Notes: generated from the sequence alone by a model not told the origin. Positions 1 to 9,001 are shown, counted from the first letter of the stretch. The stretch is 24,393 nt of DNA from Burkholderiaceae bacterium (GCA_040081145.1 JBEBHW010000001.1:1-24393); one strand, 5' to 3'. Program-made: numbers and translations.

Positions 1-1240
1 CGGTCCACACATAACTCGACAAACCGTACGCCGTCGCGTTGGCGAGTTGAATGGCTTGTGCTTCATCGGCAAACGGAATCAGGCACGCGACCGGGCCGAA
101 AATCTCTTCCTGCGCAATGCGCATCCGGTTGTCGACGTCGGCGAATACGGTCGGGCGAACGAAGTTGCCGCGTTGCATCGGCGTCGGCAAGTCAGGCGCT
201 TCGAGACCACCGCACAGCAGCGTCGCACCCTCTTTCGGCCCGAGCTCGATGTAGCCGCGCACCTTGGCCAGATGCGCCGGACTGATCATGGGGCCGATGG
301 TGGTTGCGGGATCGAGCGGGTCGCCCACCGCGATGCGCTTGGCGCGCTCGACAAAACGCTCGACGAACTTCGCATACACGCCGCGTTGCACAAGGACTCG
401 CGAGCCCGCCGTGCAGCGCTCGCCGTTGTTGCTGAAGATCATGAACACGGCAGCGTCCAGCGCACGCTCGAAGTCGGCGTCGTCGAAGATCACGAACGGG
501 CTTTTGCCCCCGAGCTCCATGCTGAACTTCTTCAGCCCTGCGCTCCTGACGATGCGGTTCCCGGTGAGCGTGGAGCCGGTGAAGGAAATGGCGCGCACGT
601 CCGGGTGAGCCACAAGCGGCTCGCCCGCTTCGGTACCGTAGCCGTGCACGATGTTCAGAACGCCGGCCGGTACGCCGGCCTCCAACGCCAGCTCGCCCAG
701 GCGCGCCGCGCTCATCGGCGAGAGTTCGCTCATCTTCAGCACCGCCGTGTTGCCGAAGGCGAGTGCCGGCGCCGTCTTCCACGTCGCCGTCATGAACGGC
801 ACGTTCCACGGACTGATCAGCGCGCACACGCCCACAGGGTGGAACAGGGTGTAGTTGAGGTGCGTGGGCGTCGGGTAGGTGTGGCCGTCGACGCGCGTGC
901 ACATCTCCGCGAAGTAGTAAAAATTGTCGGCCGCGCGCGGGATGAGTTGTTTGCCGGTCTGCGCGATGACCTGGCCGGTGTCGCGCGTTTCCGTTTGCGC
1001 AAGCTCATCGACGTGCCGCGCAATCAGGTCGCCCAGGCGCCGCATGACCGATGCGCGCTGCGCCGCAGCGAGGCCGGCCCACGCGGGAAACGCCGCCTTG
1101 GCTGCGGCGACCGCGGCGTTCACCTCGTTCGCACCGCCGCGTGCCACCTCCGCCAAGACCTCCTGCGTCGCCGGATTCAGCGTCGTGAAGTAGTCGTTTC
1201 CCGCGACGGGCTTGCCGGCAATCAGGTGGTCGATTCGCAT
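1..1240 (-). CDS. hpaE: 5-carboxymethyl-2-hydroxymuconate semialdehyde dehydrogenase (ALDH family), 3' end runs off the window
   Basis: Not in the ORF track (no stop in window); translated by hand from ATG at 1240: MRIDHLIAGKPVAGNDYFTTLNPATQEVLAEVA... ALDH motifs MELGGKSP, FSNNGERCTAGS (catalytic Cys) and QLANATAYGLSSYVWT are in frame. Lies directly after an hpaG pair. Confidence 0.9.
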   Translation of the reverse strand, partial: MRIDHLIAGKPVAGNDYFTTLNPATQEVLAEVARGGANEVNAAVAAAKAAFPAWAGLAAAQRASVMRRLGDLIARHVDELAQTETRDTGQVIAQTGKQLIPRAADNFYYFAEMCTRVDGHTYPTPTHLNYTLFHPVGVCALISPWNVPFMTATWKTAPALAFGNTAVLKMSELSPMSAARLGELALEAGVPAGVLNIVHGYGTEAGEPLVAHPDVRAISFTGSTLTGNRIVRSAGLKKFSMELGGKSPFVIFDDADFERALDAAVFMIFSNNGERCTAGSRVLVQRGVYAKFVERFVERAKRIAVGDPLDPATTIGPMISPAHLAKVRGYIELGPKEGATLLCGGLEAPDLPTPMQRGNFVRPTVFADVDNRMRIAQEEIFGPVACLIPFADEAQAIQLANATAYGLSSYVWT

Positions 1241-1258
1241 GCGTGGGTCCAGATGAAA

Positions 1259-2026
1259 TCAGCGCTTGAACGACGCATCGTCGCCAATCGTGTTGCGCAG
1301 CGTGCCGATGCCGTCGATCTCAGTGACCACGTCGTCGCCGCAGTTCACGTTGACCACGCCGTCGGGCGTGCCGGTGAGGATCACGTCGCCCGCCTGCAGC
1401 GTCATGAACTCGCTGAGGTATTCGATGAGTTCGGGAATTCGATTGATCATTTGACCGGTGTGGCCCTGTTGCGTGCGTTTGCCGTTGACGAAGGTGCGCA
1501 GCTCCAGCGCGTGCGGGTCGGCAACTTCGGCGGCTGGAACGAACCACGGGCCCAGAACGGTCGCGCCGTCGCGATTCTTCACGCGCAGGTTCGGCCGGTA
1601 CCAGTTCTCCAGGTAGTCGCGAAACGCGTAGTCGTTGCAGACGCAATACCCACCGACGAATGCCATGGCGTCGGCGCGCTTCACGCGCTTCGCGCGCGCA
1701 CCGATGATCACGGCCAGTTCGCACTCGTAATGCATGAAGCTCACGTCGGCCGGGCGACGCGTGACGCCGCGGTGCCCGAGCACGCTGTTCGGCCCTTTCA
1801 GGAACACGAGCGGCTCGTCTTGCGCCGTCACGGTCAACTCTTTCGCGAGTTCCTTCGCGTGATCGGCGTAGTTCAGACCGAGTGCGACGATCGTTCCCAC
1901 ATCAAAGGGCGCGAGCCACACCACCTCGTCTTCGGCGACGATGCGCCCGTCGTGCAAGCGCAAGCGCTCGCCGTGCGGCGTGGCCTCGAAGAGTGCGCCG
2001 ACGTAGGCGATCCGTGCCGTCTTCAT
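1259..2026 (-). CDS. hpaG: Fumarylacetoacetate hydrolase family protein, HpaG C-terminal-type subunit (4-hydroxyphenylacetate degradation isomerase/decarboxylase)
   Basis: FAH motifs LGLNYADH, EPLVFLK, YECELAVIIG, NDY, GDVILTGTP. 4-nt overlap with upstream partner; upstream of hpaE. Confidence 0.88.
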   Translation of the reverse strand: MKTARIAYVGALFEATPHGERLRLHDGRIVAEDEVVWLAPFDVGTIVALGLNYADHAKELAKELTVTAQDEPLVFLKGPNSVLGHRGVTRRPADVSFMHYECELAVIIGARAKRVKRADAMAFVGGYCVCNDYAFRDYLENWYRPNLRVKNRDGATVLGPWFVPAAEVADPHALELRTFVNGKRTQQGHTGQMINRIPELIEYLSEFMTLQAGDVILTGTPDGVVNVNCGDDVVTEIDGIGTLRNTIGDDASFKR

Positions 2027-2715
2027 GGCACGTTCTCCGGCGCGATGTGCAAGCTGATGTCGAGCCGGCCCAGACCGTCGATCTCGACCGCTGCGCGCTG
2101 CCCGGCGCGCGCGCGCGGCGCGCCGTGGGCGACGCCGAGCAGCAGCACGTCGCCGGCCTGGAACGTCATGAAGTCGCTGACCTCAGCGATCAGCCGCGCC
2201 GCCGGGCGCAGCATGTCCTGCGTGCCGGCGCGCTGCACCACGTGGCCGTCGATGGCGATCCGAACTTCCAGATCGTCCGGATTCGGAATGTCCGCGCGCG
2301 GTATCAGCCGCGGCCCCATCGGGCAATAGCCGTCACGCGCCTTGAGGCGAACGCTGGGGCGATAGAACACGCTGTGCGGCACGCTGATGTCGGCGACGAT
2401 GATGTAGCCCTGCACGAAGTCGAGCGCCGACGCCTCGCTCACCCGGCACGCCGTGCGCGCGAACACCATGCCCAGGCTGGCGCCGATTTCGAGTTCGCTC
2501 GCCCCGGCGGGAATCATCACCTCGGCGCCTGAGGTGGCAAACGTATTGCGCGGCTTGATGTACAGCACCGGGGCGCGCGGTGGCGCTTTGTACGGCGGCT
2601 GGTGAACCGCGTCGCCCAAGGCGTGCAGCGCGGCGCGGTGATTCAGCAAGGTGCCGTAGACCGTTCCGGCGCAGCGATACGCAGGCGCGTCCGTCATGTG
2701 CGCCTGCGCACTCAC
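2023..2715 (-). CDS. hpaG: Fumarylacetoacetate hydrolase family protein, HpaG N-terminal-type subunit
   Basis: GTVYGTLLNH...PPYKAPPRAPVLYIKPRNT is typical of the split HpaG N-subunit; GDVLLLG near the C-terminus. Start uncertain: GTG 2733, GTG 2715 (AAGGG upstream) or ATG 2697. Confidence 0.85.
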   Translation of the reverse strand: MSAQAHMTDAPAYRCAGTVYGTLLNHRAALHALGDAVHQPPYKAPPRAPVLYIKPRNTFATSGAEVMIPAGASELEIGASLGMVFARTACRVSEASALDFVQGYIIVADISVPHSVFYRPSVRLKARDGYCPMGPRLIPRADIPNPDDLEVRIAIDGHVVQRAGTQDMLRPAARLIAEVSDFMTFQAGDVLLLGVAHGAPRARAGQRAAVEIDGLGRLDISLHIAPENVP

Positions 2716-2770
2716 TGGTGCACCCTTCGGCACGGGCGACGAACGGCCCCTGCGGGCGGCCGAGCGGGCC

Positions 2771-4081
2771 TCATGTCCGCACCGCGGGCTTGGACATGCG
2801 GTCCGCGAGCCCGGCCCAGCAGTCGCTGTAGGCGGGGTCGAGGGCGCCGCAGGTGATCGCGTAGTCGGTGGGCACGAAGCGCCAGCGGCTTTCGAACATG
2901 AAGGCGAGCGTGTTGTCGAGCTTGTGCGGCGCCAAGGTCATCGTGCTGGCTTTGTCGAAGGCTGCGGCGTCCGGCCCATGCGGCACCATGCAGTTGTGCA
3001 GGCTCGCGCCGCCGGGCTTGAAGCCATCGGGCTTGGCGTCGTACTGGCCGTACACGAGGCCCATGAATTCGCTCATCAGGTTGCGGTGATACCAGGCCGG
3101 GCGGAACGTGTCTTCGGCGACCATCCAGCGCGGCGGGAAGATCACGAAGTCGCAGTTCGCCGTGCCTGGCGTGTCCGAAGGCGATGTGAGCACGGTGAAG
3201 ATCGAGGGATCGGGGTGGTCGAAACTGATCGAGCCGATTGTCATGAAGTTCGCCGTGTCGTACTTGCACGGCGTGAGGTTGCCGTGCCAGGCGACCACGT
3301 TGAAGGGGCTCGCGGCTTGCGTATTGCGCCAGAGGCGCCCACCGAATTTCTTGACGACGTGCGTCTCGCCTTGCGCGTCTTCAAATGCCGCCACGGGGCT
3401 CAGGAAGTCGCGCGGGTTGGCCAGGCCGTTGGCGCCGATCGGCCCGAGTTCGGGCAAGCGAAACGGCGCGCCGTAGTTCTCGGCGACATAACCGCGCGAC
3501 GGGCCGTCGGGAAGCTCGACACGAAACGCCAAGCCGCGCGGCAGCAACAGCACCTCGCCGGGTTTCGCGTGCAAGACCCCGAGTTCGGTGCGAACGATCA
3601 ACCGCCCCTGTTGCGGGACGAGCAGCATTTCGGCGTCGGCGTTCACGAGCGCGCGCCGCGTCATCGAGACATTCGCCACGTAGATGAGTGCGGCCAGGCC
3701 CGATTGCGCTTCGACATCGCCGTTGGCGACGAGGGTGCGCAGCCCGTCGACGAAGTCGAGATCTTCAGCGGGAATCGGAAACGCATTCCAGCGCATTGGG
3801 TCGGGTGCGACCGCTCGGCCGCCCGCCGCGCCACTCGTCCACCAGGGCTGCGAATACGCTTCATAGCGCCCCGTCACGACAGAGGGCTGGCGCCGGTACA
3901 TCCAGGTGCGCCGGTTCTCGGCGCGCGGCGCGGTGAACGCGGTTCCCGAAATTTGCTCGGCGTAGAGCCCGAGCGGCGCGCGCTGCGGGCTGTTGCGCCC
4001 CTGCGGCAACGCGCCCGCGACCGCCTCGCTGGCGAATTCATTGCCAAAGCCGGAAAGGTATTGCAGGTCGGTGCTGCTCAC
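2771..4081 (-). CDS. hmgA: Homogentisate 1,2-dioxygenase
   Basis: [13 protein letters not shown]...[12 protein letters not shown]-terminus, [14 protein letters not shown], Fe ligands in [11 protein letters not shown] (His, Glu) and [10 protein letters not shown] (His); 436 aa. Confidence 0.97.
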
Positions 4082-4134
4082 AGTAGTGCTCGAGTGAAGG
4101 GTGTCAGGCGGCCGTGGCGTTGGCGCCGATTGTC

Positions 4135-4356
4135 CTATGCCGGGACACCCGCCTCAGCCTTGCCGAGCGTACTCGCCCGCGCGGCGCCCAAGGCCTCGCG
4201 CAGCACGTCGAAGTCGCCGACGTGATTGGCCAGCAGCAGCACGAGTTTGGCATTCAGCTCGTGACTCTGCGAAGTCGCCAGGTCGCGGTGCGCGTCGATC
4301 AAGGCTTCGTAAAAATCATCGGGGGCGGCAAGGTTGGTGGCAGTGACGAGGGGCAC
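4135..4356 (-). CDS. DUF2783-type small protein
   Basis: 73 aa, [17 protein letters not shown]...[22 protein letters not shown] pattern recognised as DUF2783. AAGGAG SD upstream of GTG 4356. Confidence 0.85.
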
Positions 4357-4380
4357 GACGAACTCCTTGATTCAGGTCAA

Positions 4381-6102
4381 TCAGGTCAGCAGGTCCGGCA
4401 GCGCCAGCGCGCGCCGCAGCGCTGCGCGCAGGGCGTGCGGGTCGGTGCGGCGCCAGCGTGCGCAGACGTGCTGATCGGGGCGCAGCAGGATCAGCGTGCC
4501 GTCGCGGCCATCGTAGCGCTGCGTCAGCAGCCCTTGCACGTCAACGAGGCTGCGTGCACCCTCGACTTGCGCAGGCGAAGAACCCGGGCGCACGACCACC
4601 AGCACCTGCAGTGGCGCGAGTCCGTGAGCTGCCTGCTGCAAGTCCTGAACGCGTGCCGCGACATTCGTGCCGCCGAACAGCAGCGCCTTGAATCTTGCGC
4701 CGTGCAGCTCGCGCAACAACCACCCCGGTGCCGCGCCTTCGGCCTGAACCGGCGCGTCGGCGGCCGGCGCGCCCGGCTGCATCGCGCCGCTGAAGGTGTC
4801 GGTGTCGGGCGTGTTGAGCGGCGATTCGCGCAATGTGGCCGGCACCGACAAGCGCCCGCTGTTCACGAGCGAGCGTGCGAAGCGGTGCGTCTTCGCCAGG
4901 TCGAGGGTTGCGTCACGGAAGAGGCGGCTGACCTCGCTCTTGGGCGTGATGAAGTCGGTGGCGCGCGTCGAGTTCGCAATGTTCTCGTCGGCGGCGTAGT
5001 CGCGCTCCGCGGCGTAGCTGTCGAGCAGCAGATCGCCGGCGCGCCCTTGCAAGACTGCGGCGAGTTTCCACGCCAGGTTCTCGGCGTCTTGCACGCCCGA
5101 GTTCGCGCCGCGCGCGCCGAAGGGCGAGACGCCGTGCGCCGCGTCGCCGGCGAAGATCACCCGGCCATGGCGGAATCGCTCGAGCCGCTGGCAGGCGAAG
5201 GTGTAGACGCTCGCCCAGCCGATCTCGAATTCAACGTGAGGCGCGCCGATGCTGTCGAGCAAGGCGCGTATCCGCGGCCGGATGCGCTCGGGCTGACGCT
5301 CGGCTTGCGGGTCCGCATGCCAGCCGAGCTGGAAGTCGGTGCGCCACAGGCCGTCGGCCTGCTTGTGCAGGAGCACGCTTTGGCCCGGATGGAACGTCGG
5401 GTCGAACCAGAAGCGCCGCTCGGCAGGGAAATCGGGCGCGTCCATTCTGATGTCGGCAATCAGGAAGCGGTCGCGAAAGGTTCTCCCTGTCGCTTCGAGC
5501 CCCAGCAAGCCGCGCAGCGCCGACTTCGAGCCGTCGCACGCCGCCACGTACTCGGCCTCCAACACGTAAGGCCCATCCGGCGTCTCGACCGTCAGGCGCA
5601 CATGGTCGGCGCGAACCTCGACGCCGTTGACCGCGCTCTTCCAGCGCATCTCGAGGTTCGGCAACGCTGCGGCGCGGTCGGCCAGATACCCCTCAACGTA
5701 ATACTGCTGCAAGTTGATGAACGCCGGCCGCTCGTGGCCGGGTTCGGGCAACAAGTTGAAGGTGTAGAGCTGCGCCTCGCGAAAGTAGACCCGGCCCACA
5801 TTCCACGACACACCCTTGGCCACCATCGGATCGGCGCAGCCCAGGCGATCGAAGATTTCCAGCGTGCGTTTGGCAAAGCAGATCGCGCGCGAGCCGCTCG
5901 AGAGGCGATCGTCGTCATCGAGCAGCAGCACGGATACGCCTTGCTGCGCCAGATCGATCGCCAGCGCCAGCCCTACCGGTCCGGCGCCGACGATCACCAC
6001 CGGGTAGCGCAGCGGCGCCGGCGCGGCGTGGTCGGGCGCTTTGCGATAGGGGAACTGCAACGCCTCGTAGTCGCGCGACTCAGGCAGCGTTCTGCCGCTC
6101 AT
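4381..6102 (-). CDS. FAD-dependent aromatic monooxygenase (MhpA/PheA-like, group A)
   Basis: GAGPVG Rossmann motif, ACDGSKS (DG motif), FAGDAAH (GD motif), PFGARGANSG, C-terminal LLRPDQHV thioredoxin-like domain; 573 aa. Confidence 0.92.
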   Translation of the reverse strand: MSGRTLPESRDYEALQFPYRKAPDHAAPAPLRYPVVIVGAGPVGLALAIDLAQQGVSVLLLDDDDRLSSGSRAICFAKRTLEIFDRLGCADPMVAKGVSWNVGRVYFREAQLYTFNLLPEPGHERPAFINLQQYYVEGYLADRAAALPNLEMRWKSAVNGVEVRADHVRLTVETPDGPYVLEAEYVAACDGSKSALRGLLGLEATGRTFRDRFLIADIRMDAPDFPAERRFWFDPTFHPGQSVLLHKQADGLWRTDFQLGWHADPQAERQPERIRPRIRALLDSIGAPHVEFEIGWASVYTFACQRLERFRHGRVIFAGDAAHGVSPFGARGANSGVQDAENLAWKLAAVLQGRAGDLLLDSYAAERDYAADENIANSTRATDFITPKSEVSRLFRDATLDLAKTHRFARSLVNSGRLSVPATLRESPLNTPDTDTFSGAMQPGAPAADAPVQAEGAAPGWLLRELHGARFKALLFGGTNVAARVQDLQQAAHGLAPLQVLVVVRPGSSPAQVEGARSLVDVQGLLTQRYDGRDGTLILLRPDQHVCARWRRTDPHALRAALRRALALPDLLT

Positions 6103-6141
6103 CGGGCGCGCCTCGGGCCGCGCATCAAAGGCGGCCGCACG

Positions 6142-7095
6142 TCATTTTTCCAACGCAGCCCACATCTCGATGTCGCGCTGCGCGGTCCAGATGCGCGGGT
6201 CCGCGTACTTCGTCGCTTCGTCATAACAGCGTGTCACGTCGAACGGCATGCAGTGGTTGAAGATCACCCAGTGGCCATACTTGGGCTGCAGCTTGGCGAA
6301 AGTCTGCTTGTAGACCGCGTTCAAGTCCTTGCCTGCGGCCACCCCGGCTTTGACGCTGCGCCACACGTCAGCGATGAAGCCGCGCGTGCTTTTCAAACCT
6401 TGCGCCACCGCAGCAGGCGTCGTGAGCGCCGCGCCACGGCCCGGCACGAGGGCGCGGGGCGCAAGCGCGGCAAGCTTGTCGAGCGTCTTCGGCCAGTCTT
6501 GAAAATAGGCGTCTCCGGCGTACGGCGTCGCGTCGAACTCGACCAGATCGCCGGAGAACAGAATCTTCTGCTCGGGCAGCCACGCCACCGTATCCCCCTT
6601 GGTGTGGCCACGGCCGAGCTGAAGCAGCTGCACCTCCAACTTGCCGAGCCACAGGCTCATGCTGCCGACAAACGTCAGCGTCGGCCACGTCATTCCCGGC
6701 GGCACCGATTCGACGGCTTGAAAGAGGCGCGGAAAGCGCCCGATCTCGCTCGCCTTGTCGGCCTCGCCACGCTCGACGATCAGGTCATACGTGTCGCGGC
6801 TCGCGATGATGTGCTGCGGCTGATACGCGGTGGCACCGAGTACACGCACCGCGTGGTAGTGGCTCAGCACGACGTATTTGATGGGCAGATCGGTCACCGT
6901 GCGTATATGGCGGATCACGTCTTGCGCCATCACCGGCGTGGCTTGCGTGTCGATCACCATCACCGCGTCGTCGCCAATGATGACGCCGGTGTTCGGGTCG
7001 CCTTCGGCGGTGTAGGCGTAGGCGTTTTCGCTCAGGCGCGTGAACGTGACCTTTTTTTCTTCGAGGTCGGCTTGGGAGGCGAAGGTCTTGCTCAA
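6142..7095 (-). CDS. Metallo-beta-lactamase-fold protein with non-canonical metal motif
   Basis: DPNTGVIIGDDAVMVIDT, SHYHAVR, GHTKGD, FSGDL, LVPGRG. Start set at TTG 7095 because GGAG lies 5 nt upstream; the track ORF starts at 7122. Confidence 0.88.
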   Translation of the reverse strand: MSKTFASQADLEEKKVTFTRLSENAYAYTAEGDPNTGVIIGDDAVMVIDTQATPVMAQDVIRHIRTVTDLPIKYVVLSHYHAVRVLGATAYQPQHIIASRDTYDLIVERGEADKASEIGRFPRLFQAVESVPPGMTWPTLTFVGSMSLWLGKLEVQLLQLGRGHTKGDTVAWLPEQKILFSGDLVEFDATPYAGDAYFQDWPKTLDKLAALAPRALVPGRGAALTTPAAVAQGLKSTRGFIADVWRSVKAGVAAGKDLNAVYKQTFAKLQPKYGHWVIFNHCMPFDVTRCYDEATKYADPRIWTAQRDIEMWAALEK

Positions 7096-7289
7096 GGCAG
7101 CTCCAAAAAAGTCAGATGGCAAGCCAAGTATCGCGCCTGCCCGATCGCCACGGCACTCGCGAGCTCGGCGGCGCCGGCGGCCGCGGCATTCGATGGCGCC
7201 ACCAATGCGTAACAGCGTGGCGGTTTTGGGCGGCGCATGCCGTATCTGTCAGCGAGGCCTCTGCAACTCGGCAAACCAAGGACCGACCC

Positions 7290-7839
7290 ATGCGCGCACG
7301 TCACCCCACAGCTTTCGCTCCTGTCGCGCTTGCATTCGGCGCAGTTGCAGCAACGGCGACCTGGCCACGCCCGTCGCGGCGCGGCGCAGTCGCCGCGATG
7401 CGCAGCTCGGGCTGGGCCTGGACCGTCGTGCTCGCCGGCATGCTGCCCGGTTGCGGGGGCGGCGGCGGGGGTGGCGCAGCGCCGCCGGCCGTCGCGGCCA
7501 GCTACAGCGTCGGCGGCAACGTCGGCGGACTGACGGGCACGGTCGTGCTGCAGAACAACGGCGGCGACGCGCTGTCCCTGTCGACGAATTCCGGGTTCGT
7601 CTTCAGCGCCGCGGTACCCGACGGCGGCAGCTACGCGCTTGCGGTCCTGACCCAACCCGCCGGGCAGACCTGCTCTGTGAGCAACGGCTCGGGCACAGTG
7701 AACGGCGGCAACGTGATCAACGTGTCGGTCACCTGCACGACGGAGAGCACCGCCGTGCGATTCGAGCGGCAACGGCATGCTGGTATGGGTTGAGTTCGAA
7801 GGCACGAGCGCCTTCGTCTGGGCGCGGCGCTTCCAGTGA
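7290..7839 (+). pseudogene. Lipoprotein with an Ig-like 'YSVGG..V.GL.G..VLQNNG' domain; appears internally deleted and frameshifted
   Basis: AAGGA SD then ATG 7290 (alternative ATG 7398). Lipobox-like MLPGC followed by a poly-Gly linker, then one complete domain ending NVSVTC; frame stops at 7793. A different frame at 7759-7839 reads DSSGNGMLVWVEFEGTSAFVWARRFQ*, which resembles a terminal repeat of such proteins. Confidence 0.65.
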
Positions 7840-7865
7840 CTGCGCCGGCGAGTCCCCTCTAGAAT
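7836..7865 (+). promoter_or_regulatory. Candidate sigma70 promoter for DUF3460-scpA
   Basis: GTGACT (7836-7841), 18 nt spacer, TAGAAT (7860-7865), about 40 nt upstream of ATG 7906. Confidence 0.4.
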
Positions 7866-7905
7866 GATGCGCACGGCACCCCAGCCGACACTTTTGCGGA
7901 CCGCC

Positions 7906-8103
7906 ATGCCTCTGTTCTGGAAACATTACAAGTCCGACACCACGTCGTTCATCGAACACCTCAAGGCGCGCAAGCCCACGCTGGAGGCCGAACAACGCCA
8001 GGGGCGCGCCCTGCTCTGGGACCGCCGCATCGACCGCGACGCGCAGGCCGATTACGGCGACGCCAAAGTGGCGCAACAGCCTTACGTCTACCAGACCAAG
8101 TAG
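7906..8103 (+). CDS. DUF3460 family protein
   Basis: Y.SD.T.FI..LK...P.LEA.Q..GRALLWD...PYVYQ pattern; typical neighbour of scpA in Burkholderiales. Start ATG 7906 preferred over 7864. Confidence 0.85.
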   Translation: MPLFWKHYKSDTTSFIEHLKARKPTLEAEQRQGRALLWDRRIDRDAQADYGDAKVAQQPYVYQTK

Positions 8104-8122
8104 CCGCGGGCGCGCGCAAGCC

Positions 8123-8986
8123 GTGAGTGAGGTTGTGACGTCGGGCGCCACGCCCCCCCTGGCGGCGCCCGACGCTGCGGAGCGCTCGGTGCCCTCCGTC
8201 GTCGACGGCGTCGCGGTAGCGCGCCTGTACGGCGAGCCGCTGTTCACGCTGCCCAGCGACCTCTACATCCCGCCTGACGCGCTGGAAGTCTTTCTCGAGG
8301 CCTTCGAAGGCCCGCTGGACCTGTTGCTGTACCTGATCCGACGCCAAAACTTCAACATCCTGGACATCCCGCTGGCCGACGTGACGCGCCAGTACCTCAC
8401 CTACGTAGAGCAGATCCGCAAGCACAACCTCGAGCTCGCCAGCGAGTACCTGTTGATGGCGGCGATGTTGATCGAGATCAAGTCGCGCATGCTGTTGCCG
8501 CCGAAGAAGACGCGCGACGGCGAAGAGGCCGAAGACCCACGCGCCGAACTGGTGCGGCGCCTCATCGAATACGAGCAGATGAAGCTCGCCGCAGCCGGCC
8601 TGGACGCGCTGCCGCTGCTCGGGCGCGATTTCCTGCGCGCGCAGGTGACGATCGAGCAGGCGCTCGCGCCGCGCCTGCCGGAGGTGAACGCCGACGAACT
8701 GCGCGCCGCGTGGGCCGACATCCTGCGCCGCGCCAAGCTCGTCGAGCACCACACGATCACGCGCGAGCAATTGAGCGTTCGCGAGCACATGAGCATCGTG
8801 CTGCGCGCCCTGCAGGGGCGCCGCTTTGCCGTGTTCGAAGACTTGTTCGACGCGTCGCGCGGACCGCAAGTGATGGTCGTGACCTTCATCGCCCTGCTCG
8901 AACTCGCGCGCGAACACTTGCTGGAAGTGACACAGGCCGAGGCGTTTGCGCCGATCTATGTTCGTTTGGCGTTTTCGCCAAGCTGA
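8123..8986 (+). CDS. scpA: Segregation and condensation protein A (SMC kleisin)
   Basis: FLEAFEGPLDLLLYLIRRQN, LASEYLLMAAMLIEIKSRMLLP, DPRAELVRRLIEYE, VVTFIALLEL. Confidence 0.95.
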   Translation: MSEVVTSGATPPLAAPDAAERSVPSVVDGVAVARLYGEPLFTLPSDLYIPPDALEVFLEAFEGPLDLLLYLIRRQNFNILDIPLADVTRQYLTYVEQIRKHNLELASEYLLMAAMLIEIKSRMLLPPKKTRDGEEAEDPRAELVRRLIEYEQMKLAAAGLDALPLLGRDFLRAQVTIEQALAPRLPEVNADELRAAWADILRRAKLVEHHTITREQLSVREHMSIVLRALQGRRFAVFEDLFDASRGPQVMVVTFIALLELAREHLLEVTQAEAFAPIYVRLAFSPS

Positions 8987-9001
8987 ATTCCGGCGCTGCG
9001 C

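Follow-up and report, generated by a model that had tools for sequence, protein, structure and literature searches.

A 4-hydroxyphenylacetate (4-HPA) 1-hydroxylase of Delftia acidovorans has been cloned (Zink et al., patent US 8,124,846 B2; as reported in PMC9338888 and PMC8058095), and in the accounts given by these two articles the hpaH flavoprotein converts 4-HPA to an unidentified 'metabolite Z'. According to PMC9338888, citing Raspail et al. (2011, JBC 286:26061), metabolite Z is converted to homogentisate by the hpaC product (HPAC), termed '1,4-dihydroxyphenylacetate mutase'; the title of the cited paper refers to a hydroxylated intermediate common to HPPD and a structurally unrelated enzyme. 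In Pseudomonas putida U, the 3-hydroxyphenylacetate (3-HPA) 6-hydroxylase consists of a 566-aa flavoprotein, MhaA, that needs a 60-aa coupling protein, MhaB (Arias-Barrau, 2005, as cited in PMC3053370), and, as PMC3053370 presents the system, homogentisate is formed from 3-HPA with these two components only. HcdA, a single flavoprotein, carries out both the hydroxylation and the NIH shift alone (PMC6222606). In view of the two-component MhaAB and the one-protein HcdA, the chemistry does not strictly require a separate mutase.

A stretch of 24,393 nucleotides from a Burkholderiaceae bacterium (GCA_040081145.1, JBEBHW010000001.1:1-24393), here called the window, carries a flavoprotein gene of this kind beside hmgA, together with genes for a DUF2783 protein and for a metallo-beta-lactamase (MBL)-fold protein (Table 1).

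The operon and the metal site of the MBL-fold protein

As a preliminary description of the window had stated, the MBL gene heads an operon with a flavin hydroxylase gene and hmgA. The same-strand chain consists of MBL, flavin hydroxylase, DUF2783, and hmgA, with gaps of 39, 24, and 53 nt between them; the preliminary description passed over the DUF2783 gene, the product of which is likely to be a MhaB coupling protein. Downstream of the MBL gene, on the same strand, are the FAD monooxygenase, DUF2783, hmgA, a split hpaG pair, and hpaE, the last of these six genes being cut off by the window's end; no convincing internal terminator was found in this gene chain. The MBL start codon is a TTG at 7095 and homologues begin at the same position. 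Judged by eye, the N-terminus of the protein (MSKTFASQADLEEKK...) is unlike a signal peptide. For the DUF2783 protein there is no model in NCBIfam, and the literature search found no paper on DUF2783 function or on BxeA2728.

Table 1. Features of the MBL-headed operon and residues of the MBL-fold protein in the window
Feature	Position	Strand	Evidence and remarks
MBL-fold protein gene, candidate HPAC-type quinol-to-homogentisate mutase	6142..7095	-	317 aa, TTG start; ORF and translation, PF00753
Ribosome-binding site GGAG	7101..7104	-	5 nt 5' of the TTG start, by sequence reading
Motif H79-Y-H81-A-V83-R84	6844..6861	-	Site-1 HxH kept, Val for D120, R84 equivalent to R121 of BcII; invariant in orthologues
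His164 of G-H-T (H196), third site-1 ligand	6604..6606	-	Sequence reading, BcII alignment, orthologue alignment
Asp183 of S-G-D (position 221), shared/bridging ligand, kept	6547..6549	-	Sequence reading, BcII alignment, orthologues
Arg220 of P-G-R-G (H263), Arg for site-2 His	6436..6438	-	Sequence reading, BcII alignment, orthologues
Arg289, C-terminal helical domain	6229..6231	-	Invariant in 20 aligned full-length representatives, including members without metal ligands
Group A FAD monooxygenase, MhaA/HPAH-type hydroxyphenylacetate hydroxylase, 573 aa	4381..6102	-	PF01494; NF006002 835.7 bits; adjoins MBL in 52 of 64 loci
DUF2783 protein, likely MhaB coupling protein, 73 aa	4135..4356	-	PF10932 96.9 bits; size and position as MhaB/BxeA2726 (PMC3053370)
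hmgA, homogentisate 1,2-dioxygenase	2771..4081	-	TIGR01015 648.6 bits, cut-off 510.75
Split hpaG pair then hpaE, in place of fahA after hmgA	2-2733	-	hpaG: TIGR02305 and TIGR02303 over cut-offs

In the 92%-complete draft genome from which the window derives, no TIGR01266-type fumarylacetoacetase scored over the cut-off; maiA and HPPD are present on other contigs. Because hmgC is missing from the operons, the MBL-fold protein was considered as a substitute for maleylacetoacetate isomerase. This was ruled out, because the genome of the window has maiA (TIGR01262 over cut-off), as do 57 of the 60 MBL-positive genomes; maiA is sometimes within the MBL operon itself (G297). Diverging from the MBL gene is a lipoprotein-like ORF (7398-7793, plus strand) with an L-P-G-C lipobox and a Gly-rich linker. 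A divergent IclR regulator, present in 37 related loci, is absent from the window.

The MBL-fold protein matches PF00753 with 44.1 bits (cut-off 22.7). Among NCBIfam models, those for SoxH-related hydrolases and for B1/B2 beta-lactamases score highest, but each falls far short of its cut-off. For the subclass B1/B2 equivalogs, the scores are 79.9 against 200 (NF033088) and 59.4 against 240 (NF033087), and for the SoxH-related quinoprotein relay zinc metallohydrolases they are 108.1 against 280 bits (TIGR04558) and 104.6 against 300 bits (TIGR04559). Residues were numbered using HMMER alignments to Sfh-I and a profile alignment to BcII. By these, H79, H81, V83, and R84 are equivalent to H116, H118, D120, and R121 of the standard numbering, and H164, D183, E186, and R220 to H196, C221 (in BcII), K224, and H263. 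The binuclear ligand set is thus incomplete, with H116, H118, H196, and D221 present, D120 replaced by Val83, and H263 replaced by Arg220. The protein keeps the three-His site 1 and Asp183, and two site-2 ligands (D120 and H263) are gone.

The preliminary description had reported a replaced second metal site, with arginine at two of the positions. On reading and translating the minus strand, the HYHAVR motif, the PGRG Arg, the GHT His, and the SGD Asp were all found exactly as it gave them (Table 1). Replacement of the second site also holds, in that all three dedicated site-2 ligands are replaced in the frame of the canonical HxHxDH motif, with the shared Asp kept. Of the two arginines, R220 does stand in for H263; R84, however, is the normal Arg121 of B1/B2 enzymes and is not a new replacement, because BcII (HAHADR) and Sfh-I (NYHTDR) also have Arg at 121. 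Departures from the nearest characterised relatives are D120V and H263R only.

An AF2 model of the protein (pLDDT 92.9) had 572 matches in the PDB at E <= 0.001, and among the matches listed all are MBL-fold. Foremost is 8D2Z ('Metallo-beta-lactamase superfamily protein' of Burkholderia cenocepacia, structural genomics, released 2023), an unpublished crystal structure that is 62-70% identical and has the same HYHAVR and PGRG motifs (E 4e-131; 62% identity in the Foldseek alignment; TM 0.94-0.97 and rmsd 1.1 A against the AF2 model). The entry is without an assigned function, and no paper on it was found in the literature search. After 8D2Z, the best full-length matches, including the C-terminal domain, are the chlorothalonil dehalogenase Chd (6UXU; TM 0.74/0.78) and both subunits of the 2,4-dinitroanisole O-demethylase DnhAB (TM 0.68), which are hydrolytic enzymes that act on aromatic rings, but the identity of these is just 16-23%. 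The shorter B1/B2 lactamases rank after Chd and DnhAB. With BcII, CphA, and Sfh-I the protein shares the core fold, H116, H118, R121, H196, and the L-V-P-G-x-G context of position 263; it differs from them in having Val for D120, Asp for C221, Glu for K224, and Arg for H263, so that the Cys221 and Lys224 of B1/B2 are both absent, and in an extra C-terminal helical domain of about 90 aa. A predicted complex of the MBL-fold protein, MhaA, and DUF2783 scored 0.00 and carries no weight either way.

Conservation and gene neighbourhood

Over 8000 relatives of the MBL-fold protein were scored, a representative library contains 270 clusters at E <= 1e-30, and the peptide pattern L[TS]HYHA[VIA]RV matched at least 600 genome stretches. 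Conservation of the motif is far above chance. In 17 syntenic orthologues, H79, Y80, H81, R84, H164, D183, E186, R220, and R289 are invariant, and, across 40 representatives, every full-length member with an identity of about 41% or more retains HYHAVR, H164, D183, and R220. The Arg residues, on the conservation of which the preliminary description had made its reading depend, are therefore conserved in homologues, as is the three-His site. Across 20 aligned full-length representatives, W201 and R289 are the only invariant residues, with E293 nearly so.

Distant members vary. For example, P0173 retains D120 and H263, P0147 and P0151 pair D120 with R263, and site-1 His residues have been lost in P0132, P0149, P0174, P0176, and P0247. 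All three site-1 His are gone from P0149 (38% identity), yet its gene shows translational coupling with HgmA_N-like and FAH genes; a metal role is therefore not universal in the family, and at least one lineage carries out the function without this metal site. At L123 (CP132542.1, 3795-6960), an HgmA_N-like dioxygenase gene lies upstream of a member with Ser, Arg, and Gln for the three site-1 His, the gene of which overlaps an FAH gene at the latter's end; this member may serve the same function without a metal. For the members at 33-34% identity, the neighbourhoods are unrelated and give no functional lead. Of P0129, P0213, P0192, P0147, P0151, and P0208, one carries a fused hemerythrin HHE domain and several others have acidic low-complexity C-terminal tails of 90-250 aa; as clues to function, both the fusion and the tails were uninformative.

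Synteny was assessed in 64 related loci in which the sequence continues for 3 kb or more downstream of MBL. On the same strand, mhaA is present in 52 of these, DUF2783 in 51, both in 50, and hmgA in 32, and the usual arrangement is MBL - mhaA - DUF2783 - hmgA - fahA - transporter with a divergent iclR. DUF2783 is located with mhaA in 50 of the 51 DUF2783-bearing loci, the exception being L044. The MBL gene is the most conserved of the cluster, with a median identity to the window of 79%, compared with 71.6% for HmgA, 62.5% for DUF2783, and 62% for MhaA. The cassette of MBL, mhaA, and DUF2783 is also found in genomes of other orders, with 46-70% GC, including one in which the genes are ordered mhaA - MBL - DUF2783 (G601), and it is carried on Ralstonia solanacearum megaplasmids and on pDSHI02 of Dinoroseobacter shibae, where it adjoins hmgA-fahA and paa genes. 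On Rhodococcus aetherivorans pN1, the MBL gene is paired with the flavoprotein gene, and DUF2783 is not annotated. The cassette spans the Beta-, Gamma-, and Alphaproteobacteria, beside homogentisate ring-cleavage genes.

When 301 genomes of the order were sampled, an MBL orthologue was identified in 60 and DUF2783 in 53, with MBL in all 53 of the DUF2783-bearing genomes; these tallies include the unpublished genome G294, the exclusion of which gives 59, 52, and 52 out of 52. Outside the order, MBL is within approximately 5 kb in 10 out of 12 DUF2783-bearing genomes, the two exceptions being a contig that ends where MBL would lie and a different, PnpCD-type operon. Loss of mhaA has occurred independently in six scattered cases in which MBL is still beside hmgA; in two of these six genomes DUF2783 was found nowhere. 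An HPPD-like gene adjoins MBL in L081 (8001-12086), followed by an amino-acid permease gene, and MBL follows HPPD in L071 and L073 (~6830-8950). A protein search for a named Delftia orthologue returned Acidovorax proteins alone.

For a paralogous clade and more divergent MBL copies, the neighbours are ABC transporters, LysR/TetR regulators, or a gene resembling 2-oxoacid:ferredoxin oxidoreductase. Within a single family of the order (f14; L099 of G166, 3189-8991), MBL is found without DUF2783 and mhaA and is instead accompanied by a LysR regulator and by a 1178-aa gene product of the 2-oxoacid:ferredoxin oxidoreductase-like type (POR, TPP, DUF6537). The conjugative IncP plasmid p2-T1 of Acidovorax sp. 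T1 (L117, NZ_CP021650.1) carries MBL - VOC with a divergent iclR, near phosphonate C-P lyase genes, chrA, and aroA. In the low-GC genome G589, locus L118 (7028-11918) has the arrangement HPPD-like - GST - MhaA-like - small ORF (weak DUF2783 match) - PnpD-like hydroquinone dioxygenase, which is a different ring-cleavage module on a related hydroxylase. Among L071, L073, L076, L077, L108, and L112, an HgmA_N-like protein (350-420 aa) replaces the canonical HmgA after the cassette in several lineages, and in others a VOC protein (~190 aa) adjoins MBL or mhaA. It follows that the enzyme for ring opening can be exchanged.

Function of the MBL-fold protein

Based on gene distribution, the MBL-fold protein is probably HPAC. 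It is encoded with an HPAH-type flavoprotein and is linked to homogentisate catabolism, as is expected of HPAC. It is favoured over DUF2783 in this role because its gene adjoins HPPD, for which the intermediate is the same, in L081, L071, and L073, and because it stays with hmgA after the six losses of mhaA. The unrelated enzyme of Raspail et al. is said to carry out the side-chain shift of HPPD. The near constant location of DUF2783 with mhaA is as expected of a coupling protein, and therefore also favours the MBL-fold protein as HPAC.

The preliminary description had proposed, for this protein, a 1,2-shift of the carboxymethyl side chain from an ipso-hydroxylated quinol to homogentisate. The same activity is published for HPAC, in the accounts of PMC9338888 and PMC8058095, and gene distribution fits the MBL-fold protein; that the two are one protein is what we infer. 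The reaction itself is no new idea, because the activity is already in patent US 8,124,846 and in the JBC paper (Raspail, 2011, as cited in PMC9338888). The earlier interpretation was therefore largely on target and is partly supported, yet it rediscovers a published activity and contains one misreading, that of Arg84.

The full explanation, which we consider about evenly balanced between right and wrong, is that the MBL-fold protein is the HPAC orthologue and the second enzyme of a 4-hydroxyphenylacetate 1-hydroxylase, acting with the flavoprotein and DUF2783. The flavoprotein and the small DUF2783/MhaB coupling protein would hydroxylate 4-HPA at C1, and the product would be a non-aromatic quinol, such that 'metabolite Z' would be 1,4-dihydroxyphenylacetate, or quinolacetate. 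The MBL-fold protein would then shift the carboxymethyl group to C2 and re-aromatise the ring, generating homogentisate for HmgA to cleave. It may be guessed that one Lewis-acid metal at site 1, or an Asp/Arg network alone, polarises the dienone oxygen, and that the carboxylate is held by Arg84, Arg220, and Arg289, placed where site 2 used to be. Against the identification with HPAC, MhaAB and HcdA are described as managing without a separate mutase (PMC3053370; PMC6222606), P0149 is still in an HgmA_N-FAH operon without its site-1 His, and the nearest characterised full-length structural relatives, Chd and DnhAB, are hydrolases. In addition, a review terms HPAC 'a peptide', which could mean the 73-aa DUF2783 protein.

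That wording also suits an alternative in which DUF2783 is HPAC and the MBL-fold protein is a pathway hydrolase, either a thioesterase freeing (hydroxy)phenylacetate from a CoA ester or a lactonase or esterase supplying the hydroxylase or HmgA. Such a fold is typically that of a hydrolase, the MBLAC2 acyl-CoA thioesterase is among the fold matches, and MBL is usually first in the operon, after transporter genes. The Dinoroseobacter cassette abuts pcaF and paaABCDE, with paaK close by, and the large oxidoreductase-like gene beside MBL in f14 is a possible arylacetyl-CoA source. However, the cassette has no conserved CoA ligase partner, and the protein is without two of the three dedicated site-2 ligands; to our knowledge, MBL thioesterases and lactonases are binuclear. 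A hydrolase would leave the HPPD adjacency and the retention with hmgA alone unexplained, and greater conservation than the hydroxylase is unexpected for a peripheral, substrate-supplying enzyme. It is therefore unlikely that the MBL-fold protein has this role. Loss of site 2 in all orthologues, and of site 1 also in the five divergent members, could instead be taken to indicate a non-catalytic or regulatory partner that binds homogentisate or a precursor, or docks on the hydroxylase or HmgA, with the metal centre a relic. P0149 remains with HgmA_N and FAH genes, the residues that are invariant in the 20 full-length representatives (W201, R289, and nearly E293) are not metal ligands, and very high conservation also fits a protein-interaction surface. 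Such a pseudoenzyme is nonetheless quite unlikely, since the three His and Asp183 are strictly invariant in the cassette orthologues of the Beta-, Gamma-, and Alphaproteobacteria, which argues for a working site, and the literature, in the accounts of PMC9338888 and PMC8058095, gives the catalytic step to the second component.

It is very improbable that the protein serves to protect the homogentisate node, removing an oxidised or reactive by-product (for example, benzoquinone acetate or an adduct) by means of a metal-bound hydroxide, as in chlorothalonil dehalogenase. Its closest full-length structural relatives do attack electron-poor aromatic rings with water, and the MBL gene is associated with every homogentisate route (MhaAB, HPPD) and with HmgA. 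Such a step is required by no known pathway, however, and the metal ligands of Chd are presumably those of the site that is lost in the MBL-fold protein. The strict coupling of MBL to DUF2783 and MhaA would also be unexplained, because organisms with HPPD only meet the same oxidation problem.

Identification of the MBL-fold protein as HPAC, if correct, would give a defined role to a widespread gene that is annotated just as 'MBL fold metallo-hydrolase' (over 8000 relatives and at least 600 genome matches), and the classic NIH-shift route from 4-hydroxyphenylacetate to homogentisate would be complete. The protein would then belong to the rare MBL-fold members that rearrange C-C bonds and are non-hydrolytic, with the 8D2Z crystal structure at hand for mechanistic work.

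Comparison with HPAH/HPAC and MhaAB

New here are the half-dismantled metal centre, documented with its conservation, and the conserved three-gene unit, which brings together the literature on MhaAB and that on HPAH/HPAC. Constructs with hpaH and hpaC, aimed at pyomelanin production and at HPPD-inhibitor-tolerant crops, are described as having failed (PMC9338888; PMC8058095). Co-inheritance of three genes, not two, provides a concrete reason for the lack of homogentisate from these constructs in plants and in E. coli, and the three-gene unit shows which gene, DUF2783 or MBL, to add to them.

The HPAH/HPAC system of Delftia (Pseudomonas) acidovorans (EC 1.14.13.18), as it is summarised in the articles cited above, is similar in that a flavoprotein generates a non-aromatic intermediate and a second protein generates homogentisate; the window is of a related, Sphaerotilaceae-like betaproteobacterial lineage, and its flavoprotein gene is beside hmgA. 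It differs in having two published components, compared with three in the conserved cassette. MhaAB, likewise, is matched in the window by the 573-aa PF01494 protein followed, after a 24-nt gap, by the 73-aa PF10932 protein, an equivalence suggested by size and position only. In contrast, no MBL-fold component is mentioned for P. putida in the account of MhaAB in PMC3053370, and the substrate 3-HPA requires no side-chain shift. Tentatively, at somewhat less than an even chance, the cassette can be proposed to be a three-component 4-hydroxyphenylacetate 1-hydroxylase, of which the MhaA and MhaB literature and the HPAH and HPAC literature are each a partial view. The MBL-fold protein would be its carbon-skeleton mutase, carrying out the NIH shift outside the oxygenase with Arg in place of the second metal, and omission of the third gene would explain the failed reconstitution.
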